A stretch of 64,000 nucleotides of DNA from Spirochaetota bacterium (GCA_965249715.1 CBDFMP010000047.1:51922-115921); one strand, 5' to 3'; counted from the first letter of the stretch, positions 13,101-63,817 are shown. Made by a program: numbers and translations. Notes: a model not told the origin generated them from the sequence alone.

Positions 13101-14289
13101 TGTGAGCAAAGATAAAAGTTTGCTCTTACATACTGGCACGCCCTATCAACATCTTTTGGAAATTGGTGCTGTTTTTGAAAAAGAGATTTTTGAATTTATT
13201 GCCACCGATGAAACTATTTATACTTTTGATACCATCACCGAACCCATCATCGCTGAACTTTCCGGGACCATTTCTTATAGTGATGTCATTCTAAATCGCA
13301 CCTTGCGTGAGGAGGTCGATGAGCTGACGGGCGTGACAAATCGCCGCATTATTGCAAGCAAAGAAGACAACCTGCATCCTAAAATGATTATTGTTCCAGC
13401 AAAAGATGAGGCGGTGGCGACAGATATTCCAGTCGGCTCTAATTTGCAGGTGGTCGATGGACAAAAGGTAAAGCAAGGCGATATTCTCTCAGGACGTATT
13501 CGTTCGCTGAAACGCACAACAGATATTACTGGTGGGTTGCCGCGTGTGCAGGAATTATTTGAGGCACGTAATCCCCTCAGGACCGCAGTCGTCGCAGAAA
13601 TTGACGGTATTGTGGAGGTTGGAACGGCGTTTAAGGGCAAACGTGTTGTGGATGTGAAAAATTCGCATACTGAACTTATGGTCAAACATGTTGTTCCCTT
13701 AGCAAAAGCCTTATTGGTGCGCACCGGTGATGAAGTGCGTGTAGGCGATGCTCTCTCTGAAGGGATGAGATCTCCACACGATGTCCTGCGCGTCCATGGT
13801 GAAGTAGAATTATATCGCTTTATCCTGCGCAATATCCAAGAAGTTTATAAACGTCAAGGTGTGAGTATTAATGATAAACATATCGGCGTGATTGTCCGGC
13901 AGATGCTTCGTAAAGTGGAAGTGGTCGATCCAGGCGATACGTCCTGTATCCGTGGGCAGCTCGTGGACAAATTCAGAATTCGTAGGCAAAACGAAAGTGT
14001 GTTTAAGGAAGGCGGGCAACCGGCGGTTGTTAAAAGTGTGCTCTTAGGACTTACCAAAGCTTCGCTTAACACGGAAAGTTTTATTTCTTCAGCGGCATTT
14101 CAAGAAACCACAAAAGTGCTCACCAATGCGGCTATTAAAAATTCTATAGACGAACTTCGCGGGCTTAAAGAGAATATTATCATTGGCAAACGCATACCCG
14201 CCGGCACAGGGGACATCACGTATCAGGATGTTTCGGTGTATAAGGATATTCCAGGGGATCTGCAGCATCTCTTAGAAGTAGGAGATTAA
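10132..14289 (+). CDS. rpoC: DNA-directed RNA polymerase subunit beta'
   Basis: 1385 aa. N-terminal Zn-binding CFCGKY...CDRCG and the NADFDGD catalytic motif. 36-nt spacer after rpoB. Confidence 0.95.
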
Positions 14290-14317
14290 ACAATATTGTT
14301 AGCTGCATGGCGGGAAC

Positions 14318-15133
14318 TTGTTTGGGGTTTATACGCTGTATCAGTTGGGAGCGGATATGTTGGGTAGTACTGAAAAAAATCGCCAGATTAAAATAATTCG
14401 TATGCAATACGAAGAGCTTTCCACTAAGTGGGGCCATAATGTCAAAGAACTGGTGACACGTTTTGAAAAAAGATTTCAAGAGGCACGTAAGAATAAACAG
14501 GATATGGGAGTCTTTTTTACAGCGGAAAATGAGGCTATTAAGATCTTTGAAGAGCGCTTGCGCGATGGAGCTGATGAAGAGGAGCAAGAGCTGGAAAGGG
14601 AAGCTGAACAAAATTCCCCCGCTACTGGGCATCATGTTTCTACTATTGCTGAATATACGAATTATGAGCGTATTCATATTCATGAAAATGCATCAGCGGA
14701 GATTGAACATTTGTTTGGAGCGATGGTGGACTTCTCCAAGAAGCTTTTGCCTGTTTTGGAAGAGGTGCGTAAGCTTATTCGCGATAAAGCTTATCACAGC
14801 ATGAGTTATGAAATAGAGACTTTATTGCAAGATATCAGTCTTCAGCAGGAAGGGCGGCTGCCGAATGTATTTTCTGTTTATCGGGCAAAAGTTGTGCGCG
14901 CACGTAGCGGTGGAGAAGCTGAACGTGCACGTGCAGAGCCATTTAAGGCTATTTTAAATATTGCTCGTAAAGTCAAACGTTTGGGACGCTGGATTGAAAA
15001 TCATCATAGTAAGCTGCCCGCGTATATGCATGTCACCTACGATGGTGAAGGCCATTCGGCGCGCGAACTGGCAGTGATATCCGATGTGCAGCACATTGTG
15101 CGCAGTTTCGGATTGCAGGATTTTGCAGAATAA
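14318..15133 (+). CDS. hypothetical acidic protein
   Basis: 271-aa ORF directly downstream of rpoC with an Asp/Glu-rich middle segment. No family recognised. Its last ~55 nt seed the first unit of the tandem array that follows. Start could also be the M at 14354. Confidence 0.45.
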   Translation: MFGVYTLYQLGADMLGSTEKNRQIKIIRMQYEELSTKWGHNVKELVTRFEKRFQEARKNKQDMGVFFTAENEAIKIFEERLRDGADEEEQELEREAEQNSPATGHHVSTIAEYTNYERIHIHENASAEIEHLFGAMVDFSKKLLPVLEEVRKLIRDKAYHSMSYEIETLLQDISLQQEGRLPNVFSVYRAKVVRARSGGEAERARAEPFKAILNIARKVKRLGRWIENHHSKLPAYMHVTYDGEGHSARELAVISDVQHIVRSFGLQDFAE

Positions 15134-16245
15134 AAACGTCTAGCTTGGCAGTGCGGTTGTGCTTTGCGTGCTGGTCGCGCTTAGCGGCTGAGCCAGCTTT
15201 TCCAGCATTCGCCAATAAGTGTGCCTCCCACGGCGATGGCAATGACTGCAGGTGCAGCTGGAATATCTGACTATATGCTAAAAAAGATACCAAATCCTAT
15301 ATAAAATATATTCAGCAGGCTAGCGTAAACCATGGCACTGAATAAACTACGCGCGAACAGGAGCCGCAGTAGCGGCACCCAGCGCGCAAAAAGCGCGATG
15401 ATGAGGGTTATCCCTACTGCCTGAATGAGCGTGACAATGGCACAGGCACACAATAAGAGCAATCCCAGATGCAGGCGTTTAGTGGGAACTTTTTGTTAAG
15501 CTGATATCCGATGTGCAGCACATTGTGCGCAGTTTCGGATTGCAGGATTTTGCAGAATAAAAACGTCTAGCTTGGCAGTGCGGTTGTGTTTTGCGTGCTG
15601 GTCGCGCTTAGCGGCTGAGCCAGCGCTTTTCCAGCATTTGCCAATAAGTGTCCCACGGCGATGGCACTGAATAAGCTTACGCGCAAACAGGAGCCACAGT
15701 AGCGGCACCCAGCGCGCAAAAAGCGCGATGATGAGGGTGATCCCTACTGGAATGAGCGTGACAATGGCACAGGCACACAATAAGAGCAATCCCAGATGCA
15801 GGCGTTTAGTGGGAACTTTTCGTTAAGCTGATATCCGATGTGCAGCACATTGTGCGCTTCGGATTGCAGGATTTTGCAGAATAAAAACGTCTAGCTTGGC
15901 AGTGCGGTTGTGTTTTGCGTGCTGGCCGCGCTTAGCGGCTGAGCCAGCTTTTCCAGCATTCGCCAATAAGTGTGCCTCCCACGGCGATGGCAATGACTGC
16001 AGGTGCAGCTGGAATATCTGACCATACGCTAAAAAAGATACCAAATCCTATATAAAATATATTCAGCAGGCTGGCGTAAACCATGGCACTGAATAAACTA
16101 CGCGCGAACAGGAGCGCAGTAGCGGCACCCAGCGCAAAAAGCGCGATGATGAGGGTTATCCCTACTGCCTGAATGAGCGTGACAATGGCACAGGCACACA
16201 ATAAGAGCAACCCCAGATGCAGGCGTTTAGTGGGAACTTTTCTGA
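15077..16245. repeat. complex tandem array of three units (about 427, 327 and 415 bp). Each unit is the last ~55 bp of gene 14318..15133 plus the spacer plus the last ~300 bp of the permease gene (minus strand)
   Basis: Units begin with atatccgatgtgcagcacattgtgcg at 15077, 15504 and 15831. Copies differ by transitions, small indels and a ~100-bp internal deletion in unit 2. Only the last permease copy joins a full gene. The ORF-track pieces 15033..15293, 15271..15462, 15496..15789 and 15823..16044 are these fragments. Confidence 0.85.
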
Positions 16246-16783
16246 GAATGGCATAGTTTCGCTCGATGAAACTTAATTGCAGCTGGCGATAGCTTAAGAG
16301 AATAAAACCGATACTTGCAATGAGGACAGCTGTAATGAGTAACAGCTGAGTGTTGGTAATCAAAAAGAGTTCGCCAAAGAGCAGCGCTGAGAGGCTAGCT
16401 CCCAGCTGTTGTGTTTTTGTCAAAAAAATAATACCGCCGGCAATGCCGCTTGCCCAGAAGAGACTCAGCACAGTGTCTAATTTTGGACTTTCGCGCGCGC
16501 TCAGTACAGCAATGACAACTGCTGCACTCAGTGCTACGCTCAACGCACCCAGGAATGGGAAATTTAATGTGGCGCTCCATGTAGCTGGCAGCTGTTGATT
16601 GAGCAGCAACCCTAGGGCAATGCCGCCAAAACAGGTATGCGCTAAGCTTCCCGCCACATAAAGCAAACGTCGCGCAACAAGCAGTGTTCCCAGGATGCCG
16701 CTGAGTAGCCCCAAGGGGATGGCGCTTAACAGTGCGCGTTGAATAAAAGGTTCATTGAGATAAGCTTGCAGTTGTGTGAACAT
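15932..16783 (-). CDS. znuB: metal ABC transporter permease (ABC-3 / ZnuB-TroC family)
   Basis: 283 aa and polytopic. N-terminus MFTQLQAYLNEPFIQRALLSAIPLGLLSGILGTLLVARRL is typical of ZnuB/MntB permeases. Substrate could be Zn or Mn. Confidence 0.8.
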   Translation of the reverse strand: MFTQLQAYLNEPFIQRALLSAIPLGLLSGILGTLLVARRLLYVAGSLAHTCFGGIALGLLLNQQLPATWSATLNFPFLGALSVALSAAVVIAVLSARESPKLDTVLSLFWASGIAGGIIFLTKTQQLGASLSALLFGELFLITNTQLLLITAVLIASIGFILLSYRQLQLSFIERNYAILRKVPTKRLHLGLLLLCACAIVTLIQAVGITLIIALFALGAATALLFARSLFSAMVYASLLNIFYIGFGIFFSVWSDIPAAPAVIAIAVGGTLIGECWKSWLSR

Positions 16784-18052: not shown

Positions 18053-18937
18053 TTAATCATGATAATGCGAATGGTTTAACATGGCGATTGTTTGCGGGTA
18101 AAGCTTAGCGAGTGCATTGTTTGTGAACGCTGTTTTGGAAATGGTATGTACGGATTGTTTGACACAGAGCAGCTGATTGGAGAATTTGGGAGCTGCGTTG
18201 GTGTCATGTGAAACAATGAGAATGGTTTTGCCTTCAGCGCGCAGCTCTTGCAAAAGTTTATAAAAATGTGCTTCCGACTCTTCGTCAAGATTGGCAGTGG
18301 GTTCATCGAATAACAGGATGGGGGCATTGCTGATGAGTGCGCGTGCAATAGCGGCACGTTGCCGCTGTCCGGCAGAAAGTGTTATCAGCGGTACCGCAGT
18401 GAGTGCCTCCATTCCCACACGCAGCAAGGCCTTGTGAATACGCTCACGGCGTGCAGGCATGGCGGTGCGGATATTTTGGACAAATTGCCTAACTTGCTGC
18501 TTTAAAGACGGCAGTACAGGCTGAGCACTACGGATAGGGGATGATGGTTGTGAACGCTCAGTTTGTATGACGCCGCCCACACAACCAAGTGCAACATATT
18601 CTCCCAAACAAAGTGGAAAGGGGATGGGGGTGCCATGGCCGTAAGCAGCTGGCTGTTGTAAAACGCCATTGATGTAACGGCTGGGGAGCATGGCGGGTGT
18701 TAGCCCAGCAATATTGATGTTTCCCATTGTGGGATTGAGTTTGCCGCTGATGAGCATGAGGCACGTGGTTTTACCGCCGCCATTGGGGCCCAGTAAGGTA
18801 ACAATTTCACCTGCGGAGATGCTGAAACTAACAGCTTTAAGTGTTGGCTGGATTTGTGTGGGATAACGAAACGTGACCTTGTCGAAACACACTAGGGGCT
18901 TACCTTGCTGAGTGGTGGCGGCGGCGGTGATCGGCAT
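18053..18937 (-). CDS. znuC: metal ABC transporter ATP-binding protein (ZnuC-like)
   Basis: Walker A GPNGGGKT, signature LSAGQRQRAAIARAL, Walker B LLFDEP. Preferred start is MPITAAATTQQGKPLVCFDKV at 18937. The ORF track extends it to 19045, overlapping znuA. Confidence 0.8.
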   Translation of the reverse strand: MPITAAATTQQGKPLVCFDKVTFRYPTQIQPTLKAVSFSISAGEIVTLLGPNGGGKTTCLMLISGKLNPTMGNINIAGLTPAMLPSRYINGVLQQPAAYGHGTPIPFPLCLGEYVALGCVGGVIQTERSQPSSPIRSAQPVLPSLKQQVRQFVQNIRTAMPARRERIHKALLRVGMEALTAVPLITLSAGQRQRAAIARALISNAPILLFDEPTANLDEESEAHFYKLLQELRAEGKTILIVSHDTNAAPKFSNQLLCVKQSVHTISKTAFTNNALAKLYPQTIAMLNHSHYHD

Positions 18938-18992
18938 GGTTTTTTCAGGAGGAGCCGCTGCTGTTGGCAGTAGGCAGTAGGGATGCTGAGCT

Positions 18993-20066
18993 TTAGGGAA
19001 GCTGAAGCTTGGCAAAAGCGGTGAAGATTTTATCAAGTGTGGCAATGCCAGAGGTGCCGGTAGGATTCACTTGTAAATGGCTTAGTGAAGCAGCCACCGT
19101 TGGTGCCAGCTGGCTTTGAAGTCCGCTAAAATATTGGCTGTCATGCGGGGTGGTGATAACAAACTTATGTGTTGCGTGACTAAGAGCTGTGGTGAAACGT
19201 TTTAGCTGGCTGGGTGTTGGGGCAATGTGATCATCCTTGCTGAGTGAAATGACCTTGAGCGCTAACGGGGCATAAACATATTCCAGCTCTATTAATAGGG
19301 GATGAAGCGTGAAGAGTGTTTTTTCCTCAGCGTGGTTTATGGTCTGAACAATAAACTTATCCAGCTTGGCAATGCGTGTTTGATATTCGCTGAGCTTGTT
19401 TTGGTACAGCTGTGCATGAGCGGGCTGTTCAGCACTCAGTGCCTTAGCAACTAGCTCCGCCAGCTGCCTAAGTGAAGAGGGTGCCAACCAAGGATGAAAA
19501 CTGGCTGGAGGTACATTGTTAGCAGCAGCTTGATGGACTTCGTGCTGAGGCAGCTCTGTGGGGGGTTCATGGGTTTGATCATGATTGTTAAGGTTCAAAG
19601 CGTGCGTGTCAACGTGCGTATACTCAGCGTCATGAATAATGGCGTTATTTTGTTCGTTATAAAATGAAACGATCCGTATTTGCGGGTTCAGTGCGCGAAT
19701 TTTGGGCAGCAGTGGTTTTTCCAACTCCAGTCCTACACTTATGTATAAAGCTAAGTGTTTGAACTTTTGAATAGTCTGCGGTTTTAAGTGGAAGAAGTGC
19801 GGATCATCATTGCCATCGCTGAGCGTGATAATTTCTACGCGCTGCGGTGCAGCTTGTTGCGCGTGTTGATACTGCCACTCAGCGGCAATCGCTGCAATAA
19901 TGCTGCCAATAGCAGGGATGGCACAGCCAACCCGAAGTGGTGCAGCACTGAGTGGTGATCTCAGCAATAATACGACTAACAATCCCCAAATTATTAATGG
20001 CAATAATTGTAATTGTGAGGAGCGCAAGGAAAACATTAAATGGTTGAGCTTGTTATGGAACAGCAT
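18993..20066 (-). CDS. znuA: periplasmic metal-binding protein (ZnuA/TroA family)
   Basis: 357 aa with a signal peptide. DPHFFHLKP matches the DPHxWLxP metal-site motif. A His/Glu-rich loop (HDQTHEPPTELPQHEVH) is like the ZnuA zinc loop. Confidence 0.8.
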   Translation of the reverse strand: MLFHNKLNHLMFSLRSSQLQLLPLIIWGLLVVLLLRSPLSAAPLRVGCAIPAIGSIIAAIAAEWQYQHAQQAAPQRVEIITLSDGNDDPHFFHLKPQTIQKFKHLALYISVGLELEKPLLPKIRALNPQIRIVSFYNEQNNAIIHDAEYTHVDTHALNLNNHDQTHEPPTELPQHEVHQAAANNVPPASFHPWLAPSSLRQLAELVAKALSAEQPAHAQLYQNKLSEYQTRIAKLDKFIVQTINHAEEKTLFTLHPLLIELEYVYAPLALKVISLSKDDHIAPTPSQLKRFTTALSHATHKFVITTPHDSQYFSGLQSQLAPTVAASLSHLQVNPTGTSGIATLDKIFTAFAKLQLP

Positions 20067-20110
20067 AGAGTTTTTTTTATAGTTTGTTTACACGCTGCCA
20101 TGCACGAGTA

Positions 20111-20161
20111 TGTTACAGTGTAACACTGAAACTGTCATATCATAACATGTTATGGTGTAAC
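20111..20161. promoter_or_regulatory. cluster of Zur/Fur-family-like palindromic boxes 45-95 bp upstream of znuA
   Basis: TGTTACAgTGTAACA (20111-20125), ATAACATGTTAT (20142-20153) and TGTTATggtGTAAC (about 20148-20161). The half-sites GTTAT/ATAAC resemble the E. coli Zur box TGTTATawtATAACA. Confidence 0.5.
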
Positions 20162-20353
20162 GCGGGAATGATTTTAAGTATTTTTATGATTTTTTCAGTT
20201 ATTGCTCAATGGCAGTAGAATTAAGCGTATTTGTTTACAAAATACTTATGCAATTCTTTGAAATTCCGTTTATTGAAATGGGTAGCTGCTTTTATGGAAA
20301 ATAATTATTCAGTCATTGCATAGTATTGCCGCTAAGTTTTTAATGGGAGTTTC

Positions 20354-22426: not shown

Positions 22427-23242
22427 GTGAATTCACTGGTATCAGCATTAACGCGTATTGGGCAGTTAGAACGCCAATTTCAACAGTACTTCAGTAAAAC
22501 TGCGCCGCGCAATACGTTTACTGAAAGCAATGCTGCCTCAGCGCAGACCCCTGCTACTCCTACGGCAGCTTTATCACCATTTGCTACGTCGTTTGCCGCC
22601 ACTGATATTCTGCCGCAAAATTTATCCTCAGTGAATTTGGTTGATGGTCTAACAAATGGTCTAACCACCCAGTCTCCACTTGGCAATTTTAAGGAATTAC
22701 TTAACGCCAAGCTGCAATTAGCATCAGCGTCACCAACAACTGGCGGGCAGCAAACTGCAGTGAAGCAGCTTAAAACAAGCCCCATACAACAGGCGGCTCA
22801 GGTGCCTGTTGTACAAACAAGACAGTTAACGACTTTTCCTTTTCAGGCACAAATTACAGCTGCTGCAGAAGCCAATGGGTTGCCTGTCGCTTTGTTTCGC
22901 TCACTTGTAGCCGCTGAGTCGAATTTTAATCCACTGGCTGTATCGGCAAAAGGCGCTATGGGGCTGACTCAGCTTATGCCGCAAACGGCAGTCGCGCTTG
23001 GTGTCACGGAACCTTATGATGTGGAAGCCAATTTGCAGGGCGGCGCGCGCTACTTGCGAATGCTTTTGGATAAGTACGGCGGCGATTACGCTAAGGCGCT
23101 AGCGGCTTACAATGCCGGTGAGAAGGCTGTAGCACGTGCCGATGAGCTGAGTGGGGTCAGTGTGCCACCTTATGCTGAGACTAATCAATATGTGAAGCGT
23201 GTTTTAACAAGTTATTTAAAATATAGCGGGGTGAGTTTATGA
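22427..23242 (+). CDS. lytic transglycosylase (SLT domain) protein
   Basis: C-terminal AESNFNPLAVSAKGAMGLTQLMPQTA...AYNAG is the SLT catalytic core (ES...GLMQ...AYNAG). The N-terminal 130 aa are low-complexity. Possibly flagellum-associated, given its neighbours. Confidence 0.7.
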   Translation: MNSLVSALTRIGQLERQFQQYFSKTAPRNTFTESNAASAQTPATPTAALSPFATSFAATDILPQNLSSVNLVDGLTNGLTTQSPLGNFKELLNAKLQLASASPTTGGQQTAVKQLKTSPIQQAAQVPVVQTRQLTTFPFQAQITAAAEANGLPVALFRSLVAAESNFNPLAVSAKGAMGLTQLMPQTAVALGVTEPYDVEANLQGGARYLRMLLDKYGGDYAKALAAYNAGEKAVARADELSGVSVPPYAETNQYVKRVLTSYLKYSGVSL

Positions 23243-23862
23243 ATTTGGAACGTATTTTACGTATTGGCATATTACTGGTTGCAATTGGGTTAGGAGGATT
23301 GGTATTACTTTTTTTTATTGAGCAACAGCTGTTTATAACGGCTTATTCAAGCTTGAAAAGCAATTTGCCTGCCTTTTTGGTGAGTCAACCCAAACAAGAG
23401 CCCAGTCAGAGTGCTGAGCGTGCACGCGAATTGCAACTCTTAGCGGAAGAAGAACGTGCTAAGCTGCAAGAAAGCTTTTTTTTGCGTGAAAGCGGGCTTG
23501 CTGCAAAAGAGGCTATGCTGTTAGTTCTTGAACAGGAATTGCAAACTGAGCGTACCAATTTAATAACTGAACGTGAAGAGCTTCTGAAAATACGCGAACG
23601 TGCGGATACATTGGCGGCTGAAGCAGCCAGCTATGATAAAAAAATACAGGAGCTGGCGGAACGTTTTTATAATATGCCGCCACAAGCTGCTGCACCACGG
23701 ATTGTGGCATTGGAAGACGATATTCTTATTATCGACGTGCTTGCAGCCATGGATCTGGTCGCTGCTGAAAATGATCAACTTTCAATTGTGCCATTTCTGC
23801 TTTCATTAATGCCTGCAGAAGTTTCGGCGCGCATCATGAAAAAAGCGACAGTTGAGTTGTAA
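23239..23862 (+). CDS. single-pass membrane coiled-coil protein (FlbB/MotE-like, MgtE_N-like C-terminus)
   Basis: 207 aa. N-terminal TM helix, charged coiled coil, C-terminal IVALEDDILIIDVLAAMD...LMPAEVSARIMKK. Start overlaps the stop of the upstream gene by 4 nt. Confidence 0.4.
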   Translation: MNLERILRIGILLVAIGLGGLVLLFFIEQQLFITAYSSLKSNLPAFLVSQPKQEPSQSAERARELQLLAEEERAKLQESFFLRESGLAAKEAMLLVLEQELQTERTNLITEREELLKIRERADTLAAEAASYDKKIQELAERFYNMPPQAAAPRIVALEDDILIIDVLAAMDLVAAENDQLSIVPFLLSLMPAEVSARIMKKATVEL

Positions 23863-24813
23863 GCTGATTGTTCCCTAACCGTAAGCTTCAGGCAGCGGTT
23901 AATCACTAAAAGCTATAATCCTATAAACGCAGCAGCTTGTTTTAGCGGTTATGCTAGAATTAGGTGTTTGTTCGGCATAGTTTATTATTAAATGACCGAA
24001 CAGGTGTGACTAAATTAAACTTGTGGCAAAAAACTATCAAACACTCAGCTTTCAATTGTGCCATCTCTGCTTTCATTAATGCCTGCAGAAGTTTCGGCGC
24101 GCATCATGAAAAAAGCGACAGTTGAGTTGTAAGCTGATTGTTCCCTAACCGTAAGCTTCAGGCAGCGGTTAATCACTAAAAGCTATAATCCTATAAACGC
24201 AGCAGCTTGTTTTAGCGGTTATGCTAGAATTAGGTGTTTGTCCGGTATAGTTTATTGTTAAAGGATCGAATAGGTGTGACTAAATTAAACTTGTGGCAAA
24301 AAACTATCAAACACTCAGCTTTCAATTGTGCCATCTCTGCTTTCATTAATGCCTGCAGAAGTTTCGGCGCGCATCATGAAAAAAGCGACAGTTGAGTTGT
24401 AAGCTGATTGTTTCCTAACCGTAAGCTCCAGGCAGCGGTTAATCACTAAAAATTATAATCCTATAAACGCAGCAGCTTGTTTTAGCGGTTATGCTAGAAT
24501 TAGGTGTTTGTCCGGCATGGTTTATTATTAAATGACCGAATAGGTGTGACTAAATTAAACTTGTGGCAAAAAACTATCAAACACTCAGCTTTCAATTGTG
24601 CCATCTCTGCTTTCATTAATGCCTGCAGAAGTTTCGGCGCGCATCATGAAAAAAGCGACAGTTGAGTTGTAAGCTGATTGTTCCCTAACCGTAAGCTCCA
24701 GGCAGCGGTTAATCACTAAAAACTATAATCCTATAAACGCAGCAGCTTGTTTTAGCGGTTATGCTAGAATTAGGTGTTTGTCCGGCAGTTTATTGTTAAA
24801 GGATCGAATAGGT
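23863..24813. repeat. three extra ~270-bp tandem units between the FlbB-like gene and the AlkD-like gene
   Basis: Unit = internal fragment of the downstream gene (cognate at 24952-24990) fused to the last ~70 bp of the upstream gene, plus the spacer, plus the first ~40 bp of the downstream gene. The marker ctaaattaaacttgtggcaaaaaactatc recurs at about 24010, 24281 and 24551. The genuine junction is at 24811. Confidence 0.85.
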
Positions 24814-25545
24814 GTGACTAAAGCAGCGGAAATAACAAAAGCGTTATTACGTTATCAGAATAAGGTGAAATTAGCCTTTTTCCCGAGATATTTTAAAACA
24901 GGTAAAGGCGAATACGCTGAAGGTGATGAGTTTCTTGGCGTTACCGTGCCCAATATTAAACTTGTGGCAAAAAATTATCAAACACTCAGTTTTCCAGAGC
25001 TTAAGGAAGTTTTAGCGTCACCTAAACACGAGGTTCGTCTATTGGGCGCCCATGTCCTGGTTGCGCAGTTTGCGCGCGCGCGTACGCGTGCAGAACAAAC
25101 TGCCGTTTATCGTTTTTATTTGCAAAATTTGACAGGAATTAATCATTGGGATATTGTGGATGCCAGCACGCATAAGCTCATTGGTGTTTATGTGTTGTCG
25201 CTTACAGCGGCTGAACGCGATGCCGTCCTGGTGCCGCTTGCGGAACATTGTAATGTATGGCGCAGACGTGTGGCTTTGGTAGCAATGTATCGTTTGATCA
25301 AGGAACGCGAACTGGTTTATGTCAGCAAATTTCTCACACGTTTTGTTGCAGATGATCATCAGCTTATTCATAAAGGTTTGGGCTGGATGTTGCGCGAACT
25401 GGGTAAATATGCTCCAGAACGACTTAGTCGTTTTTTACATAAGTACCATCGCCGCTTAGCAGCGGTGACCATTTGTTACGCCACAGAGAAAATGGCGCGC
25501 TCAGAACGTGCGCTTTATTATAAACGCAAATCAAAATCAGGTTAA
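24778..25545 (+). CDS. DNA alkylation repair protein (AlkD/AlkC-like HEAT-repeat family)
   Basis: 255 aa. FFPRYFKTGKGEYAEGDEFLGVTVP...HEVRLLGAHVLV...INHWDIVD matches the DNA_alkylation family pattern. The ORF-track start is a TTG at 24778; an alternative GTG at 24814 follows aagga. Confidence 0.7.
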   Translation: MSGSLLLKDRIGVTKAAEITKALLRYQNKVKLAFFPRYFKTGKGEYAEGDEFLGVTVPNIKLVAKNYQTLSFPELKEVLASPKHEVRLLGAHVLVAQFARARTRAEQTAVYRFYLQNLTGINHWDIVDASTHKLIGVYVLSLTAAERDAVLVPLAEHCNVWRRRVALVAMYRLIKERELVYVSKFLTRFVADDHQLIHKGLGWMLRELGKYAPERLSRFLHKYHRRLAAVTICYATEKMARSERALYYKRKSKSG

Positions 25546-31052: not shown

Positions 31053-31898
31053 ATGACAGACGCAGCTGATGATGGAACAAATGTCCCGCTTGTCCCGCTG
31101 CCAAGTACTTTGCGCCGGCAGCTTGAGCAGCTGGCAGCTGAGCTCCGCGCGTGTACTGGAGGGCGTGTACTTTTTATAACAGGCGCTGGTGTTTCGGCAG
31201 AATCGGGTTTGCCCACTTATCGCGGCACGGGCGGACTTTACAATCAGACTGTTACAGCAGCTGGGCTTCCTATTGAAACCGTGCTTTCTGGAACGGTTAT
31301 GCAAACACAACCTGCGCTGACTTGGAAATATTTACAGGCAATGGAACAGGCTGCGCGCGGAAAACAACCCAATGCAGCACATATTGCCATTGCGCAGTTT
31401 GAAGCGTTTTTTACAACCATTGTTCTGACGCAGAATATTGACGGGCTGCATACTCAGGCTGGTTCAGCTGCGGTTATTGAAATTCATGGCAGCCTTTACC
31501 GCTTGCGTTGTACGGCTGCTGCATGTCCATGGGAAGCGACGGTTGCCAATTATGCGCACTTAGCGCCGCTGCCGCATTGCCCACGTTGTGATGCACTTAT
31601 GCGTCCCTGTGTGGTTTTATTTGGTGAAATGCTTCCCGCAGCTGCGCTGGAACAGCTGGAGCAGGCGCTGGCGGAGCCTTTTGCAGCTGTTTTTATTGTG
31701 GGAACGACGGCTGTATTTCCTTATATTCGTGCACCGCTACTTGCCGCACAACAAGCCGATATTTTAACGGTTGAAATTAATCCAACTCCCACTGAGCTTT
31801 CCGCTGTATGCAAGTACAGTTTGCGAGCGCAAGCAGGAGCCGTCCTCAGTGCGCTTCATGCAATGCTTGCGGCGGGGGAAGAACAGCATGAAAAGTAA
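31053..31898 (+). CDS. cobB: NAD-dependent protein deacylase (sirtuin, CobB-like)
   Basis: 281 aa. GAGVSAESGLPTYRG, TQNIDGLH, catalytic HG, and Zn-binding CTAAAC...CPRCD pairs. Confidence 0.85.
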   Translation: MTDAADDGTNVPLVPLPSTLRRQLEQLAAELRACTGGRVLFITGAGVSAESGLPTYRGTGGLYNQTVTAAGLPIETVLSGTVMQTQPALTWKYLQAMEQAARGKQPNAAHIAIAQFEAFFTTIVLTQNIDGLHTQAGSAAVIEIHGSLYRLRCTAAACPWEATVANYAHLAPLPHCPRCDALMRPCVVLFGEMLPAAALEQLEQALAEPFAAVFIVGTTAVFPYIRAPLLAAQQADILTVEINPTPTELSAVCKYSLRAQAGAVLSALHAMLAAGEEQHEK

Positions 31899-32329
31899 AA
31901 AGCGGCAGCGAACGTTTACACCCTGCACGCGCTGTTCAACTTAGCTTGGCAATACTTGTTTGAGCGTGTTGAGCAGCTCCTTATTCGCGTTGTTATGCGC
32001 TTATGCGCCCTGTGTGGTTTTATTTGGTGAATGCTTCGCAGCTGCGCTTCATGCAATGCTTGCGGCGGGGGGGAAGGACAGCATGAAAAGTAAAAAGCGG
32101 CTGCGAACGTTTACACCCCGCGCGCGCTGTTCAACTTAGCTTGGCAGCAAGCACTTGTTTGAGCGTGTTGAGCAGCTCCTTATCCGCGTTGTTATGCGCT
32201 TAAGGCGTCCCTGTGTGGTTTTAACTTTGGTAGAACTGCTTCGCGCAGCTGCGCTGCAACAGCAGGAGCCGTCATCAGTGCGCTTCATGCAATGCTTGCG
32301 GCAGCGAACGTTTACATCCCGCGCGCTGT
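31899..32329. repeat. two extra ~195-bp tandem units between the convergent sirtuin and GT9 genes
   Basis: Each unit contains the sirtuin 3' end (gcgcttcatgcaatgcttgcggc), an internal sirtuin fragment (cognate at about 31585-31640, CDALMRPCVVLFGEMLP) and the GT9 3' end. The marker cttagcttggca recurs at about 31941 and 32136. The genuine copy is at 32331. Confidence 0.8.
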
Positions 32330-33532
32330 TCAACTTAGCTTGGCAGCAAGCACCTGTTTGAGCGTGTTGAGCAGCTCCTTATTTTGGTATTGTTTCATGC
32401 ACTGAATGTCATTGGGACAGTTTTTATTCAGACACCTATACGATGTGCGAATGGGCGCTTTTTTTATGTAAGGACAATCATAAGCTGCCATGAGCGCAGC
32501 ACTGTGCCTGCTGCGGGCAGTGGCTGCTAGTGCTTGAGCATAAACAGGACTTTGCCGTTCTCTGTTGGTGGGCCCAAAGCAGGTAATAACGGCTTTGCCC
32601 ATTAGCTCGGCAATATAGGCTGGCCCGCTGTCTGCTGCAATGACAAGCTGGGCAAGGCCGATGAGCGCAAACAATTCGCTCAGTGTGGTGGGCGGTGCAA
32701 GGATGATTTTTTGCGGATAGCTGCGCTGGACAGCCTGTGCCTGCGCAGCGTGTGCCTTGTGGGCACTGAGGATAAGCGGACTTTGGGTATGCGCATAAGT
32801 GGCATTGATGATGAGAGCCAGCAGCTCAGTGCCCAGGTCACGTGTATAAAAGGTGCTCCATGGGGCAAGGACAATGACACGTTTGAGGCCTGCTTGTTTG
32901 ATGAACTGGCGCATATGTTTGAGTGCTGCTGCGGCAAACTGAAAGCGAATGAGTGCATTCTGGAGCGCAGGCACTTCTCCTGCTGCTGCTGCAGCGGGTA
33001 CGCTTGCTGGGGTGTGCGGGGTTGTTGCTGGGGCTAGGCTGTGGTGCAGGGAGCTATGGATGCCAAGTGGTTTCAGCAACTCAAGATTTTTATCAATAAT
33101 GTTTAGCGCCTGCCCGCGCACGCGTGTACTGTACCACCAGTGACTGCCTTCACGGCTTTCTGCGGCACTAAAACCAATGTGCTTAACACCGCGCATGAGC
33201 CGCGCAATGATCGCCGATTTTAAAAGTCCCTGCGGATCAATGATGGCGTCATAATAACGGGCACGCAGACGATGTAAACAGCGTTCGCGTTTGAAGTGGC
33301 TGAGACTGCGGAAGCTACTTCGCAATGTGACTTTTTGTGGCAGCGGGATGCTGATGATTTCATCGACAGCACTAAAATGCGCCACCACCTCAGCAAATGC
33401 CTCAGCGACTACCCAGGTGATAAATAGCTGCTCGCCGCGCTCCCGATGATAGCTTTCCAGACGACTGAGCAGGATACTGCTGTGGAGGATATCGCCCATA
33501 GAAGAAAGGCGGACGATTGCGTAACGGATCAT
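32330..33532 (-). CDS. glycosyltransferase family 9 (ADP-heptose:LPS heptosyltransferase-like)
   Basis: 400 aa. N-terminal IVRLSSMGDILH is the hallmark GT9 motif (compare WaaC/WaaF). Confidence 0.8.
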   Translation of the reverse strand: MIRYAIVRLSSMGDILHSSILLSRLESYHRERGEQLFITWVVAEAFAEVVAHFSAVDEIISIPLPQKVTLRSSFRSLSHFKRERCLHRLRARYYDAIIDPQGLLKSAIIARLMRGVKHIGFSAAESREGSHWWYSTRVRGQALNIIDKNLELLKPLGIHSSLHHSLAPATTPHTPASVPAAAAAGEVPALQNALIRFQFAAAALKHMRQFIKQAGLKRVIVLAPWSTFYTRDLGTELLALIINATYAHTQSPLILSAHKAHAAQAQAVQRSYPQKIILAPPTTLSELFALIGLAQLVIAADSGPAYIAELMGKAVITCFGPTNRERQSPVYAQALAATARSRHSAALMAAYDCPYIKKAPIRTSYRCLNKNCPNDIQCMKQYQNKELLNTLKQVLAAKLS

Positions 33533-37467: not shown

Positions 37468-37487
37468 AGTATGACAGAGGGATGCGC

Positions 37488-54091: not shown

Positions 54092-57000
54092 ATGAAAATT
54101 ACTGATTTTATAAGCTTAAAAAGTGCGTTACTTTTACCTCTTGCATTTACTGCGTGCAGTGTTGCCGATGATGCCAGCATACGCACGCTCACATTTGAAG
54201 AAATGTTAGAACCTGCAATCACTCTCACCGATGCTAACGGGGAAGAGTTTTTCGGCGCTTCTGTCAATATTGAGTTTAATGACGATACGACTGGCGAGTC
54301 TACGGACGGCACTATTTTCGTTAACGGTTTTACGAATGTTTGTTCCAATCCGCCCTGCACGGACGCTGAGCTGCAGGAGCCCATCGGCCGCCTTACCATT
54401 ACTGGAATGTCCGATACTTTTACCCTCGCAGAGGACGCAGCAAGTAATGTCATCGACATACCTGATCAGGAAGGCGCTGCCAGCATCTCAGGTAACTTAG
54501 GCAACATTGTCATCACACGCACAAGTGACAAGGCGCTCCGCACCTATGCTGTCATTGTTCAGTACAGTGGGACGCTTGTCACTGAAATTGTCGACAATGC
54601 CGGAGGCTTTGTGAATGTCATTTCCCCAGCTATGGCACCTATGGCTAGCGCTACTTTGGGCTACCAAGCGACAACAACTGCTGTATGGGACGAAGAGGTA
54701 TTAGTCGTCACTGATATGGTGAACCTACCCGGTGATACCGCAATGGGAACGGTTTCTGTTACTGCCAGCGAACTTCCTGCTGGCTACTATGTCATGCCTT
54801 ACACCTATACCGACCCTGCCGGCACAAAGGCTGTCGCACTTATGGGTACACTTACCATTGCTGAAGGCGATGAAAATACACTAAGCGTAGCTTATGAGAA
54901 CCAAGCTTCTTACGACAACCTGCGCATTGAGCTAACTGAAGCGCCTGATCTTGCAATCACTCCCCAAGACCTGATCATCTCAGTAACGAATACGCTCAAC
55001 AACGATATCGTCCTTGACGCTGGGCACTTCGTTATTAATTACAACCATTTTACCGTTACCATCACTGACGCTACTATTTTTCACAATTTAAACGGAGCTG
55101 AGTTAAGTTTAAGCAGTGGTTCGCTTAGCCTTAGCGGAACAGAAAATAGCGCTTTTGATATTGATGCCGCAAATATAACTACCGTGTTTACGGATCCCAT
55201 CGGTACTGAAGCTATCACTACCAACCTCAATACTTTCAGCGTAACAAAAGATGCTATTTCTATTGACTACTCGCTTTATTTGACGTTTGCAAGTACTTAT
55301 AACTTCGAGCTGGATAGTGAGGTCATTGCTGACATGGAAACAGGTGTATCCGCTCCTTTTGTTATTGCAGCTTGCGATAACCCAACCAGCTCTATCTTCA
55401 CTATCGCCACTGACGGCACGACCAACTATTTTGCTAATGTGAGCGGACGTGTTAATTATTATTATAATAGCGCGATAGATGCTAATAACACCAATACCAT
55501 TGTCCTTACGGCTGATGATGGCAGTAGTTTGGATTTTACAGGAGCCATTGCTGTACAGAAGTGCGACAGTTTTGCAGGCGGCGATGGCAGCGCTGGCAAT
55601 CCCTGGCAAATTGATAACGATATGCAATTAGACCTTATGAGCCGCCTCATTAATAATGATGATGCCGCTACAGCTACATATAGTGACTACGGCGATGATG
55701 CCTACATCCTCACTGCGAACATCGATATGAGCATTCCCGAAGCGCCATGGGCAGAAGGTAGTTTGCACCCCAATGCAAATACAAACGGCTTCATACCCAT
55801 TGGCAAGAGTGTTAATCCTATCGGACTCTCAGTCTCACATCAAAGCAACAGCTTCAAGGGACAGCTGAACTGTGAGGCTAACAACACCCGCTATGCTATT
55901 GCGAATTTATACATTAACAATACAAATGACACTGCAGCTGAGAATACTGAGGGAGTTTTTATCGGTCTTTTCAGCGTTCTCACTAATGGCGCTGTGATTA
56001 CAAACTGTACATTGGAAAATGCTTCTATAACTGGATACCAAATTGTAGGAGGCATAGCAGGATATGCGTATAGTTCAAATAATGAGAATATTAGTATTGG
56101 AAGTAATATCGTTGCCAATAGTAGTATCACGGCTAATAGTAGCCGCGTAGGCAGTATTGTGGGAGTTATTTATAGTGTACAAAACAGCAGCATTGTTATC
56201 AGCAGCAATGCCGTTACAAATGGCAATGTTTCAACTGGCAATAGCTACGCAGGCGGCATCATAGGAGCTTCCACTAGTTCAGGCACCAGTACTAATACTA
56301 TCAGTGGCAATACCGTTACTGATGGAAGTATCACGGCTGACAATGACAACGCAGGCGGCATCACAGGGTATGTGGCTAGTTCCGGTGGTAATACTATTGT
56401 CAGCATGAATACTGTTACTGGCGGTAGCGTCACGGTAAACGATGATAACGCAGGCGGCATTGTGGGATATATTCATAGTTCACAGGACGCAAACAGTACC
56501 ATAAGCGGTAATACTGTTGCAAACGGCAATATCACCGCTAGCAACAATTTCGTAGGCGGTATTGCAGGATATATGTATAGTGGAGAGAGGGGCGGCGGCA
56601 CCCTCAGTAATAATGTTGTTACAAATGGCACCATCAGCGTAAGCTTCTATGATGCAGGCGGCATTGCAGGAGTGATGTATAGCACATCCTTTGGCAGCAA
56701 TGCCCTCAATGACAACGTCGTTACAAATAGCAGCATCACAGCTGATAATACAGCAGGCGGCATTGTGGGAGATGTGTATAGTTTAGAAGATGGCAGCAAT
56801 ATCATCAGCACGAATAACATTAGTGGCGGTAGCATCACGGCTAACATAAGCAACGCAGGCGGCATCGTGGGATTTATGTATAGTGAAAATGCCAGCAAGA
56901 GCAATGTCATCAATGCCGCGTTTGCCGCCACAACCATTACTGCCAGCAATGGAAACGCCGGCGGAGTAGTCGGGTACATTCTTCAGGGAGGCATCACTAA

Positions 57001-57445
57001 CAGCTTTTTTATGGGAACCATTAGTGCTGATAGCGGTACAGTTGGCGGTGTCGTGGGTTTTGTGACCGATACCACGTCCACTATCACCAACTCTTATGCG
57101 GCGGCAATTGTAACGGGTATTCCTGATACTAGCTATGGATTGGTGCCCACCAGCGTTACGGTCAACCATAGCTACTACAATAGCACATTGCACACAGGCG
57201 CAGCCGACAGTGCTGAGGGAACAGTCGCGCAAAGCCATGACGTGCTGCGATACCCCAGGGGCAGTAGAGGCATTTATGCGAACTGGGATGAAGCCAGTTG
57301 GGATTTCGGCACTGACGATCAGTACCCCATGCTGAGAGGATTGCCACTTACGGCTTCCGAGCAGTGCGGAGTTGCCGATGCTGCGCTTACCAGTGTGACG
57401 TTTAACTGTGGAACGGGTACGGGCGATACTGGTTACGATGATTAA
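54092..57445 (+). CDS. giant surface lipoprotein with an N-terminal Cys-x-x-Pro-Pro-Cys module and ~13 tandem GLUG-like 29-aa repeats
   Basis: 1117 aa. Lipobox LAFTAC-S. N-terminal module CSNPPCTDAE...IPDQEGA is paralogous to modules in 58617..63817. Repeats have consensus N-x-V-T-N-G-x-I-T-A-x-N-x-N-A-G-G-I-V-G-Y-x-Y-S. Ends ...NCGTGTGDTGYDD. Confidence 0.7.
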   Translation: MKITDFISLKSALLLPLAFTACSVADDASIRTLTFEEMLEPAITLTDANGEEFFGASVNIEFNDDTTGESTDGTIFVNGFTNVCSNPPCTDAELQEPIGRLTITGMSDTFTLAEDAASNVIDIPDQEGAASISGNLGNIVITRTSDKALRTYAVIVQYSGTLVTEIVDNAGGFVNVISPAMAPMASATLGYQATTTAVWDEEVLVVTDMVNLPGDTAMGTVSVTASELPAGYYVMPYTYTDPAGTKAVALMGTLTIAEGDENTLSVAYENQASYDNLRIELTEAPDLAITPQDLIISVTNTLNNDIVLDAGHFVINYNHFTVTITDATIFHNLNGAELSLSSGSLSLSGTENSAFDIDAANITTVFTDPIGTEAITTNLNTFSVTKDAISIDYSLYLTFASTYNFELDSEVIADMETGVSAPFVIAACDNPTSSIFTIATDGTTNYFANVSGRVNYYYNSAIDANNTNTIVLTADDGSSLDFTGAIAVQKCDSFAGGDGSAGNPWQIDNDMQLDLMSRLINNDDAATATYSDYGDDAYILTANIDMSIPEAPWAEGSLHPNANTNGFIPIGKSVNPIGLSVSHQSNSFKGQLNCEANNTRYAIANLYINNTNDTAAENTEGVFIGLFSVLTNGAVITNCTLENASITGYQIVGGIAGYAYSSNNENISIGSNIVANSSITANSSRVGSIVGVIYSVQNSSIVISSNAVTNGNVSTGNSYAGGIIGASTSSGTSTNTISGNTVTDGSITADNDNAGGITGYVASSGGNTIVSMNTVTGGSVTVNDDNAGGIVGYIHSSQDANSTISGNTVANGNITASNNFVGGIAGYMYSGERGGGTLSNNVVTNGTISVSFYDAGGIAGVMYSTSFGSNALNDNVVTNSSITADNTAGGIVGDVYSLEDGSNIISTNNISGGSITANISNAGGIVGFMYSENASKSNVINAAFAATTITASNGNAGGVVGYILQGGITNSFFMGTISADSGTVGGVVGFVTDTTSTITNSYAAAIVTGIPDTSYGLVPTSVTVNHSYYNSTLHTGAADSAEGTVAQSHDVLRYPRGSRGIYANWDEASWDFGTDDQYPMLRGLPLTASEQCGVADAALTSVTFNCGTGTGDTGYDD

Positions 57446-58616: not shown

Positions 58617-61600
58617 TTGATTATGAAATTCACTCAAACAACTTCAACAAAACACTTCACCCCGCCCAAAAAAATACCTAAATTTGTTTTTGCTTTCCTC
58701 ATAAGCATCTTATTCTCCGTTTTCACGGCATGTACCACCGCCGATGACAGCACTTCCACTCGCTTAACGTTTGAACGGGCATTGGATGACGCTATCGCAC
58801 TTAACAATGTTGACGGCAGTAGCTCACTTCAGGGTGCTATTGTTCGCTTTGAGCATACAACCAATGATAACGGTGAAACCACCGGCGATGGTACTATTAT
58901 TATTGAAAATATCACCAATATCTGCTCCAGCCCGCCTTGTGGGGTTGCTGAAACTGCCGATATCGGTACGCTTGTGCTGTCTTATAATGACAATTCTTTT
59001 ACCATCGCCAATAATCCAGCTTTCACCATTACTGACACAGCAGCTTCCCTGTCTATCCCAGACCAAGACGGCGCTGTTGCTGCAAGTGTTACATTAGCTA
59101 CCATTACCATCACCAGGAACAGCGATGCAATGGACTTCAACTACGACATTATCGCCGATTACAATGGAACTCCTGTCGCTAATATTATTAATGCCATTGT
59201 CTCCACTCCTGCTGATATTACAAAAATTATCAATGCCACCTTTGATGCTGTTGAACTGGAAGCAACCTTAGATGCTGCTTCCGCTACTATCGCCCTCAGC
59301 GGCATCAACCGCGTCAATGGCAGCGGTGTTATCAGCATTAATGACAACGACGACGGCACGCTCCCAGCTGGCTTCGCGGTCACTAAACCTGACGGCACAG
59401 CTTACACTTTCGCCGATCCCGATGATGCCGACATTACCAATTATGACGCCACCCCGCTAGCTGAAGGCATGCTGAGCATTGCTGAACGTGTGGATAATGG
59501 CGACGGCACCTTCGGCGATGTTGTGGGCGGCAATGAAGCCAGGTTCACGGTTACATTCGCCTTAGCCGAACTCAGCGGCTTCGGTAAAACTTTCCTCAGC
59601 ATCGCTGACCCAGACGGTAATGACCTCAACGGTTATGACATCACCGTGACAACAAACGACGCCACTACTGGTACCATTGCCATTAGCGGTCTTATAAATG
59701 CCTGTGCCACGCCGCCCTGTATGAACGCAGGAGGCGCCATCGGTACACTCATCTTTACTAAAGAGAATGCCGCTTTCATCATTACTGCCGATGGAGACTT
59801 CATCGACGCCGGTACAACCGTCACCCGTAGTGTCCCCGACCAGGACGGTGCCGGCGCTATAGCAGCTGTTGCCTTGGGCAACATTACTATCTCTAACATT
59901 GATGACGCTGATGAAATCAGCTATGCCGTTACTGCCACTTACACAGGCACACCCGTTAATGACATCATTGCCAACGCAGCAGGCGGCATCGCTGACCTCA
60001 TCACCGCTACGTTTACTTACGGTACTTTCACCAGTCAAACACTCACCCCAAGTTTGAACGCCGAGTTTGATACCATCACCCTTGCAGGTACCAATACCTA
60101 CTCGGGCACAGGCGCTATCAATGGCATTGACACTGTCCTCCCAGCTGGTTTCACCGTCTCCACCCCAGACGACACGGACTTTACTTTCAGCGACCCCGAT
60201 GATGGTGCCATCACTGAAACCAATGCCACCTTAACTACATCGCTCACCATTGCTGAAACGGGTACGGATAACAGCAATGATTACAGCATTATGCTGGACT
60301 TAGCCGCACTCACCTTGTTTGATGAAACGTTCCTCAGTCTCAATGACGCTGACGGCAACACCGTCACCGCTGATAATGCCATCATCGTAGCCACAACTGA
60401 AGACCCTGACCCAGCTGTCAGCTCAGGCGCCATCACGCTTAGTCAAATCACAAACTTGTGTACCGCCCCGCCCTGCAGTGATGCTGAATCGGATGCTGTT
60501 GTCGGTACGCTCATTCTTACTAAGGATAACGCTTTTAGCTGTTGCGTTCAGCGCCACTTTCAGCCGATGACGACACCACCGCCACACTCAGTCTCCCCGA
60601 TCAAATTGGTGCGACAAATACAAACGTTGATTTTGCTGCTGCAACCAATATCACCATCACGCGCGGCGATAATGCTGTCATCACTTATACCCTCAGTGCC
60701 GCTTACAGCAGCACTGCTGTCGCTGACATCATTGCCAATGCCGTAGGCGGCGTGCCTGCCCTTATTAAGGCTACATTCAGTGGACGTGACCTCATTGCCG
60801 AGCTCAGCGCTGACGGCAGCACCATCGCACTCAGCGGCACCAATGCCGCAACACCCGTCGACGCCGACCCCCCAGCAGGTGCCATTAACGCCAGCAGCAT
60901 GCTCCCAGCTGGCTTCTTCGTCACTAAAATTGACGGCACAGCTTATACAGCTTATACCTTTGCTGACCCTGACAATGAAAATACCAACGATTATCTCGCC
61001 ACTACGCTGACTGAAGGCATGCTGAGCATTGCTGAACGCGCGGATAACGGCGACGGCACCTTCAGCGATGCTGTGGGCGGCAATGAAGCCACTTTCACGG
61101 TTACACTTGCCTTAGCTGAACTCTTAGAACTTAACCAGGTAAATTTTAGCATCAATGCCCCAAGCGGCACTCCGCTTGGCACGGATGTTTATTCCATTGA
61201 CGTGACAATAAACGATGACGCCACCGCCACCGGCACCATCGCTATTAGCGGTCTGACTAATGCCTGTGCCACGCCGCCCTGCATGAACGCAGGTGATGCC
61301 ATTGGCACGCTCGTTCTCACTAAAGATGCCGCCGCTTTCACCATTACTGCCGATGGAGACTTCACCAATGACACCGACACCGCCACCGCCACCCTCAGTA
61401 TCCTAGACCAGGACGGCGCCGGCGCTGCAGCAGCTGTTACCTTGGGGAACATTACCATCTCTAACCAAGGCGCTGATGAAATCACCTATACCGTTACTGC
61501 CACTTACACAGGCACACCCGTTAATGACATCATTGCCAACGCAGCAGGCGGCATCGCTGACTTCATCACCGCTACGTTTACTTACGGTACTTTCCCCAGT

Positions 61601-63817
61601 CAAACACTCACCCCAAGTTTGAACGCCGAGCTTGACACCATCACCCTTGCAGGTACCAATACCTACTCGGGCACAGGTGCTATCAATGGCATTGACACTG
61701 TCCTCCCAGCTGGTTTCACCATCACCCCAGTAGGCAGTACGGATTTCACCGACCCCGATGGTGATGACATCACTGAAACCAATGCCACCTTAACTACATC
61801 GCTCACCATTGCTGAAACGGGTACGGATAACAGCAATGATTACAGCATTATGCTGGACTTAGCCGCACTCACCTTGTTTGATGAAACGTTCCTCAGTCTC
61901 AATGACGCTGACGGCAACACCGTCACCGCTGATAATGCCATCATCGTAGCCACAACTGAAGACCCTGACCCAGCTGTCAGCTCAGGCGCCATCACGCTTA
62001 GTCAAATCACAAACTTGTGTACCGCCCCGCCCTGCAGTGATGCTGAATCGGATGCTGTTGTCGGTACGCTCATTCTTACTAAGGATAACGCTTTTAGCGT
62101 TGCGTTCAGCGCCACTTTCAGCGATGACGACACCACCGCCACACTCAGTCTCCCCGATCAAATTGGTGCGACAAATACAAACGTTGATTTTGATGCTGCA
62201 ACCAATATCACCATCACCCGCGGCGATAATGCTGTCATCACTTATACCCTCAGTGCTACTTACAGCAGCACTGCCGTTAATGACATCATCGCCAATGCAG
62301 GCGGCGTGCCTGCCCTTATTGAGGCTACATTCAGTGGACGTGACCTCAGCGCCGAGCTCAGCGCTGACGACAGCACCATCGCACTCAGCGGCACCAATGC
62401 CGCAACAGCCATCGACGCTGACCCCCCAGCAGGTGCCATTAACGCCAGTAGTCTTCTGCCAGCTGGCTTCGCGGTCACTAAAACTGACGGCACAGCTTAT
62501 ACCTTTGCTGACCCTGACGGTGAAAACACCAATGATTATGACGCCACCCCGCTAGCTGAAGGCATGCTGAGCATTGCTGAACGCGTGGATAATGGCGACG
62601 GCACCTTCGGCGATGTTGTAGGCAATAATGAAACCAATTTCTCCGTTATGCTGACATTAGAAGAATACAGCGACTTCGGTATGCTTTTTTTCACCATCAA
62701 TGATCCAGCCGGTAATGAACTCACAGGCGCTTCACTCAGCGTAACAACAGCCGCCACCACCGGCACCATCGCCATTAGCGGTCTTACTAATGTCTGTGCC
62801 GCCCCGCCCTGCGCGAACGCAGAAGCGAATATCGGCACGCTCGCTCTTAGTAATGATGCTGTAGTGTTCACCGTTACTGACTTCGGAGATTTTGCCAATA
62901 ACGACGGGACCGCTACCCTTATCATCCCAGACCAGGTCAGCGCTACCCAGCTGCTGAGTGTTGCCTTGGGGAACATTACCGTCGCCAATATTGGGGCTGA
63001 CGCCATTACCTATACCATCACCGCCGCTTACAGCAGTACTCCCGTTACTGAGCTTATCGCTAATGTTGGCGGCATATCAGCACTGCTGCCGCCGGCAGCA
63101 GCAACCGTCACTTTGGGCAGCAGTGGAGCAGGTGATAATGCCATACTCAGCTGGGAGAATGATGTTTTAACCATCGTAAACATCCCCAACCTCAGCGGCA
63201 ACACTGAAGCGGGAATGGTGACACTGCCTACTCCCAGCTTATTGCCCGCAGGATTTTACATTAGCTCGACAAGTTACCCCTTTACGGACCCAGTCGGTAC
63301 GGATGACGCCAACATAAATGATGATGCTGCCTTTACCATTGCTGAAGGTGATCCAGGCGATGGTACTGAACAAAACCCGCCCACCATAACCGATAACAAT
63401 AGCAATGTTTATGGTCTGAACATTAATTTTGGCGCAACTCCTCCTGTTATTCTTAGTGCTACAGACCTGAGTATCATCGTTACGGATACGCGCGGCATTG
63501 ATCACAGCATCGCTTCAGCTCAACTGCGCGTTGTCCAGTATGATGCGAATCCCAGCGTGACCATCACTGCCGTTGCTGATATTCGTAACTTTAACGAAGC
63601 AATAACTGCACTTGGGTTACGTGATGGAACAGTTATGCTTGCTGCTGCAACGGGCAGCAGTATTTCCATTGATATAACAGACATCGAAACTACCTTTGTT
63701 GATGCCGCTGGCACGGAATCCATCACGCTTGACCTTGGCAGTTTCAGCGCAACAGAAAATTCTAGTTCCACTACTTATACGTTTATGCTTTACGCTACTG
63801 ACAGCTTATGGCATTGA
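58617..63817 (+). CDS. giant modular surface lipoprotein (paralog of 54092..57445), reading frame interrupted near 60535-60575
   Basis: ORF-track pieces 58617..60746 and 60542..63817 are one gene. The segment 60000-60540 is nearly identical to 61530-62100. The break has two 1-nt insertions relative to the internal paralogous copy at about 62095. Lipobox FTAC-T. About 8 modules start at ISGLTNxCAxPPC...LPDQDGA. Confidence 0.6.

Follow-up and report, generated by a model that had tools for sequence, protein, structure and literature searches.

Tandem triplication of a convergent gene junction beside an ABC-3 permease gene in a Spirochaetota bacterium

How does the meeting point of two convergent genes come to stand three times in a row with both genes still whole, and does the arrangement serve a purpose? 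This question is raised by a locus in a stretch of 64,000 nucleotides from a Spirochaetota bacterium (GCA_965249715.1 CBDFMP010000047.1:51922-115921), referred to here as the window, in which the gene that follows rpoC (gene A) faces the permease gene of a metal transporter. An initial annotation of this DNA had described the 3'-end junction between the two genes as triplicated, and nucleotide alignment and self-BLAST bear this out. Positions 15075-16242 are occupied by three contiguous head-to-tail units without unique DNA between them, an arrangement recovered from the one assembly by direct reading, a repeat finder, a three-way alignment and self-BLAST alike. The units are composed as follows.

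Unit 1, 15075-15501, 427 bp: functional gene A tail 15075-15133; spacer 15134-15180; orphan permease 3' fragment 15181-15494 (minus strand); filler 15495-15501.
Unit 2, 15502-15828, 327 bp, orphan on both sides: gene A tail copy 15502-15560; spacer 15561-15607; permease fragment 15608-15821; filler 15822-15828.
Unit 3, 15829-16242, 414 bp: orphan gene A tail 15829-15884; spacer 15885-15931; functional last 103 permease codons 15932-16242.

Common to all units are the last 18-19 codons of gene A (ISDVQHIVRSFGLQDFAE followed by the stop), the spacer and about the last 103 codons of the permease, close to the 100 first estimated, and successive units start 427 and 327 bp apart. In the self-BLAST of the window, units 1 and 3 are 97.1% identical over 419 bp and the pairs that involve unit 2 reach 93-95%, values far above chance. 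The gene A tail of approximately 19 codons is present three times as originally described, with the qualification that an in-frame 3-bp deletion has removed one Ser codon from the unit 3 copy, and the spacer measures 47 bp in each unit instead of the 48 bp given before. A 7-bp filler, GTTAAGC, stands at both unit-unit junctions and is missing from both native flanks, in neither of which by-eye inspection identified a source for it. Since the filler is identical at both junctions, the units are taken to descend from one founding junction. The convergent spacer now amounts to 798 bp, compared with 47 bp before the triplication. Although the repeat finder and BLAST detected this array, TRF did not call it, plausibly because unit 2 is shortened.

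The genes on either side of the array, and the operon to which one of them belongs, are the following.

14357..15133, plus strand: gene A (post-rpoC gene; ORF 14318..15133), with its intact 3' end in unit 1.
15932..16783, minus strand: ABC-3 metal-transporter permease, 283 aa, intact (Pfam ABC-3; exact protein P0004).
18053..19045, minus strand: ABC ATPase (Pfam ABC_tran).
18993..20066, minus strand: ZnuA-family (cluster A-I) binding protein (Pfam ZnuA).

The start of gene A is placed at 14357 because the database copy of its product (P0001) is 258 aa long and 100% identical. Among 5.8 billion proteins, gene A matched only itself and COTS27_00521, with which it shares 49-51% identity and a conserved C-terminus; it matched no Pfam family, and a scan of a genome collection returned no relative. 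Gene A is a lineage-specific conserved hypothetical protein. The permease matches PF00950 (ABC-3) over its full length (E=8.9e-46, residues 12-268 of 283), aligns end to end with its COTS27 orthologue at 45% identity and is encoded at the end of a minus-strand operon, behind the genes of the ZnuA-family binding protein and the ABC ATPase. The name 'znuB-like' used in the initial annotation is appropriate at the level of the ABC-3 family. Since the protein scores below the NCBIfam equivalog cut-offs for both AztB (105.6 bits, cut-off 280) and ZnuB (77.4 bits, cut-off 284), zinc specificity is not established and the assignment is kept at the family level. The part of the permease that is repeated, earlier taken for a single C-terminal TM segment present three times, is indeed triplicated and covers about 3-4 hydrophobic segments. 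In an alignment with COTS27, the ABC ATPase retains its Walker A, signature, Walker B and H-loop motifs. Its ORF (18053-19045, minus strand) encodes 330 aa compared with 252 aa in COTS27, an excess that is made up of a TTG start that is probably over-extended, M37 being the likely start, and of 36 aa inserted after the Q-loop region and before the signature motif.

The three copies have not fared equally. Gene A continues without a break into unit 1, as does the permease gene into unit 3, so that the intact genes lie at the outer edges of the array, and the two orphan permease fragments are in broken frames, as had been proposed from the first reading. An extra C (+1) and an extra GC (+2), located in unit 1 at 15364 and 15382-15383, are common to the stubs of both of these units, 1 and 2. 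Over the stretch ALFALGAATALLFARS, the frame of unit 3 resembles the COTS27 permease (ALFS-LSSATAALSSRT), with LGAATALL in the former and LSSATAAL in the latter; the additional bases change the frame in units 1 and 2 to ARWVPLLRLL, which breaks the motif conserved with COTS27. In the unit 1 stub, a C>T change additionally creates a premature stop, visible as an ORF at 15271..15462 that ends in FFSI. The internal deletion of about 100 bp ascribed to unit 2 is real and comprises 96 bp between direct repeats ATGGCA (unit 1 positions 15236 and 15332), with small indels bringing the net shortening to 100 bp; such a deletion, flanked by a short direct repeat, would be a typical footprint of slippage. 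Based on the frameshifts, the premature stop and the 96-bp deletion, the inner copies are read as decaying pseudogene stubs. Between the units of the array (15075-16242), variable columns comprise 13 transitions and 4 transversions, and the corresponding ratios in the other arrays of the window are 20:6 (16632-18124), 12:1 and 29:17. When the functional copy is used as reference, the changes in the permease stubs are mostly GC>AT (11 vs 4), a bias that weakens to 37 vs 26 once all arrays are pooled.

The age of the triplication can be approached through COTS27, a crown-of-thorns starfish symbiont and the nearest relative found, which was reached via protein search and whose RpoC is 82% identical. 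A syntenic 21-kb locus (AP019861.1) carries rplJ-rplL-rpoB-rpoC-gene A facing permease-ATPase-ZnuA, with rpoB-rpoC-gene A and permease-ATPase-ZnuA in the same order as in the window. Its gene A/permease junction is single copy, which indicates that the triplication arose after the two lineages split. The COTS27 spacer at this position is 500 bp long and contains 11/22/44-bp tandem repeats (11148-11329 of the 21-kb locus) that are unrelated to the units of the window; the spacer has been lengthened by tandem repetition independently in both lineages. COTS27 and the window agree in the order of the genes at the locus and in having intergenic DNA that is rich in repeats. The COTS27 repeats differ in being short in period (11-106 bp, and 96-289 bp in one spacer), purely intergenic and unrelated in sequence, and no coding ends were found within repeats of the 21-kb locus. 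Downstream of znuA, positions 14600-17100 of the COTS27 locus form a gene-free stretch of approximately 2.6 kb that consists almost entirely of tandem repeats, with periods of 11-106 bp and 96/193/289 bp. The authors of the COTS27 genome reported 23 assembly gaps from tandem repeats, 1650 genes in 2.68 Mb and a chromosomal G+C content of 39.6%; the G+C content of the window is 47%. Nine exact window proteins, all of them on a single NCBI/ENA contig of 228,857 bp, form singleton clusters at 90% identity among approximately 15 billion sequences, pointing to an uncultured COTS27 relative that is known from one assembly. Among the matches listed in an RpoC scan of a genome collection by a universal motif, proteins of approximately 50% identity came from many phyla and say nothing about the true relatives.

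The triplication does not stand alone. Beyond what the initial annotation had recorded, the window contains at least five such arrays, i.e. at least four further large-period arrays, each of which spans a gene junction and includes gene ends. The five arrays together cover about 5.6 kb, or approximately 9% of the window, and the additional ones are listed here.

Array 2, 16632-18124: 5 units of ~299 bp (TRF: period 299, 5.0 copies, 95% matches).
Array 3, 23775-24822 (and 24955-24994): 3.9 units of 270 bp.
Array 4, 31581-32383: ~199-bp period, at a second convergent 3'-end junction, 31053..31898 (plus strand) / 32330..33532 (minus strand).
Array 5, 57296-58423: 2.2 units of 520 bp, 92% identity.

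In array 2, it is the 5' end of this same permease gene that is repeated. Each unit joins the final 24 ABC ATPase codons, a spacer of ~75 bp and the first ~50 permease codons; the junctions are blunt and identical, and the units are 93-98% identical to each other. As a result, 1.27 kb separate the ATPase stop from the permease start within one operon, and of the 852-bp permease gene just 389 bp (16243-16631), between the two arrays, are single copy. In every array 2 unit, a permease start also has the same weak promoter-like site, TCGCCA-17-TATCAT, upstream of it. The units of array 3 combine the 3' end of 23239..23862, a spacer and the 5' end of a DNA-alkylation-repair gene (24778..25545). 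All orphan units of this array lack 132 bp of the native gene (24823-24954), and this common deletion suggests that a longer founding unit was trimmed before amplification. The copies of array 4 are 84-91% identical, contain internal deletions and are described as older. Array 5 duplicates the last ~50 codons of a gene for a 1117-aa surface protein (54092..57445) together with the downstream spacer, and was unreported by TRF because its period exceeds the 500-bp limit of that program. In addition, the window has two intergenic arrays of short period, TTGGCAG x20 and GCTTAGTGAAGTGA x8.6 (41577-41719 and 37486-37603, respectively); TTGGCAG occurs 49 times in the window compared with 15.5 expected, mostly because of its array. 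Two overlapping large ORFs, 58617..60746 and 60542..63817, share an internal repeat of ~1.5 kb (59356-61527 vs 60897-63051, 84% identity), and the ORFs in 58617-63817 have the appearance of a single gene for a repetitive surface protein, broken in two by a frameshift.

Taken together, the locus is very probably a real, lineage-specific tandem segmental duplication that began with an illegitimate join, grew by homologous recombination or slippage and was followed by neutral decay of the stubs. In such a scheme, a segment of ~420 bp, with one end 57 nt within gene A, the other 310 nt within the permease and the 47-bp spacer in between, would have been duplicated over the convergent junction by illegitimate, non-homologous joining that left the 7-bp GTTAAGC at the join. 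Unequal homologous recombination between the units, or replication slippage between them, could then have brought the array to three units, and the inner copies, presumably unselected, would decay neutrally. The outermost copies keep each gene whole because the breakpoints lie in different genes. A duplication that falls wholly inside a gene would disrupt it, and purifying selection may leave mainly those that straddle a spacer; a filter of this kind would account for the gene ends in all five arrays without a targeting mechanism. Two features fit this explanation poorly and are counted against it. Unit 2 is the most diverged (12 substitutions vs either neighbour), more so than expected if it were the youngest and despite the indels it shares with unit 1, and the 57-nt gene A tail has zero substitutions in all three units. 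Gene conversion between units, or a mild constraint on the 3'-UTR side, could explain both anomalies. As far as the window reaches, the triplication is one instance of a genome-wide tendency toward large-period arrays across gene junctions, and it is best read as a commonplace structural side effect of a host-associated genome that is prone to repeats, with no pointer to a new molecular mechanism.

Alternatively, the array might be maintained by selection, providing serial termination signals, an 800-bp insulator against read-through or antisense collision, or stabilisation of the 3' UTR. The ancestral convergent spacer of 47 bp is very short, each gene has kept >100 nt of its native downstream sequence, and in COTS27 the corresponding spacer has independently reached 500 bp through unrelated 44-bp repeats, all of which would favour this view. 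The gene A tail and the spacer are also better conserved than the permease part, with 0 substitutions over 57 nt in each of the three units, but this contrast is marginal (P about 0.04, own estimate). It had been argued that any terminator between the two genes would be triplicated as well, which is logically true; the spacer copies, however, yielded no canonical intrinsic terminator in a consensus scan, and terminator-like sites across the region number 7 vs 7.7 expected. The permease stop is overlapped by a weak hairpin with UUUU after it, which cannot be told apart from chance. The spacers fold no better than shuffled sequence (z = +0.95, +0.33, -0.53, +0.33), and an Rfam search over 14000-20500 returned best matches of E >=0.13, far below gathering scores. 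Moreover, arrays of like construction are found at co-directional junctions, where the argument from convergence fails, and the stubs are visibly decaying. A selected function is consequently considered improbable. A 10-mer, AGCTTGGCAG, was also considered as a shared motif. It is found at 15142-15151, 32138-32147, 32337-32346 and 36734-36743, including the spacers of two convergent arrays, and its 6 occurrences compare with 0.38 expected, but they reduce to 3 independent sites after removal of duplicates; as one of these is coding and one lies inside another gene, the recurrence is probably a coincidence and the candidate was rejected.

A slightly poorer case can be made for an assembly artefact, in which a repeat was inflated, or variants from different strains were joined in tandem, during assembly, so that the true locus would hold one unit or some other number. 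The organism is known from one assembly, arrays with units of 300-430 bp are hard for short reads, small indels separate the copies, and a 38-nt stretch that is invariant across the units has no exact match in JGI metagenome contigs. On the other hand, the differences between units do not resemble random noise: the substitutions are unit-specific and biased toward transitions, the 96-bp deletion is bounded by microhomology, and either flanking gene is preserved whole in precisely the outer unit expected for it, which argues for real mutation after duplication and against assembler behaviour. An artefact would also have to produce the filler common to both junctions, and five arrays that follow the same logic with different periods and different divergence (84-98%). 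With this evidence on the other side, an error of assembly is likewise improbable.

The position of the permease between two arrays invites a third proposal, namely that the orphan C-termini act as donors in a recombination cassette that toggles the gene between an intact and a defective C-terminus. With only 389 bp of single-copy sequence between the arrays, unit identities of 93-98% that suffice for homologous recombination and uneven unit divergence that hints at gene conversion, the components of such a switch would be at hand. The donors are broken by frameshifts, a stop and a deletion, however, and could thus bring about loss of function only. Antigenic or phase variation is not known to act on a metal permease, arrays of this kind also adjoin unrelated housekeeping genes, and neither a site-specific recombinase nor inverted repeats were found nearby. 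A switch is therefore very unlikely, and this proposal was rejected. Repeated insertion of a mobile or selfish repeat, such as a MITE-like or IS-derived element, was rejected as well and has a negligible probability: several repeat families exist in the window, but the unit consists of two native gene ends and their native spacer, colinear with the COTS27 gene order, and the hallmarks of an IS or MITE are absent within the window, where unit ends carry no inverted repeats and no copies of the unit occur elsewhere.

Tandem segmental duplication followed by decay thus remains the preferred reading. Going one step further, the lineage may possibly run an active process of junction-spanning duplication with expansion and contraction, at an array density equal to or above that of Ehrlichia ruminantium, a suggestion that is put forward tentatively and is the less likely state of affairs. 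If it held, copy number would differ between host individuals and the arrays would be usable as VNTR markers; additionally, the arrays that bracket the metal-uptake permease could modulate its expression or occasionally knock it out. Irrespective of ongoing activity, the locus offers a clean and datable case in which tandem duplication inflates intergenic DNA and makes gene-end stubs with the flanking genes unharmed. The orphan ORFs of such arrays lead gene callers astray, and the arrays themselves are fragile spots in assemblies and could give high-resolution strain markers.

Two known systems resemble this organization. In the literature reviewed, E. ruminantium has the highest tandem-repeat content reported for a bacterium, with 6.3% of the genome (0.38% in E. 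coli) and periods of up to 471 bp (PMC3287509 Table 4). The underlying studies (Collins et al., 2005 PNAS; Frutos et al., 2006 J Bacteriol) are represented here by the figures given in secondary summaries, according to which the arrays expand and contract in non-coding regions and slipped-strand mispairing is the proposed origin (PMC10710844, PMC3287509). As portrayed in these summaries, E. ruminantium shares with the lineage of the window a host-associated life, extended intergenic regions and numerous head-to-tail arrays of large period, and its 6.3% can be set beside the ~9% of the window. E. ruminantium belongs to the Rickettsiales and has ~27% G+C, whereas the window comes from a Spirochaetota-labelled COTS27 relative with 47%, and variable copy number is a hallmark shown for E. 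ruminantium, in contrast to the one assembly available here. A further difference is that the units of the window demonstrably derive from the coding ends of both flanking genes. Duplicated gene fragments are reportedly formed at the edges of E. ruminantium arrays. The second system is Wolbachia, in which VNTR-141 and VNTR-105, as summarized in the same source, are long-period intergenic arrays between single-copy genes, with internal deletions in their periods and high between-period identity for which slippage and concerted evolution have been invoked (PMC3287509). The Wolbachia periods are described there as non-coding and equipped with hairpins thought to drive slippage, whereas the units described here are gene ends with no significant hairpin. 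With contiguous head-to-tail units, a local native origin with intact genes at the edges and many arrays in the window, the locus has, in this one assembly, the structure of a junction-spanning tandem segmental duplication of the E. ruminantium/VNTR type. The repeat-driven plasticity highlighted in Ehrlichia and Wolbachia is in this way shared by little-known, spirochaete-like associates of marine invertebrates.
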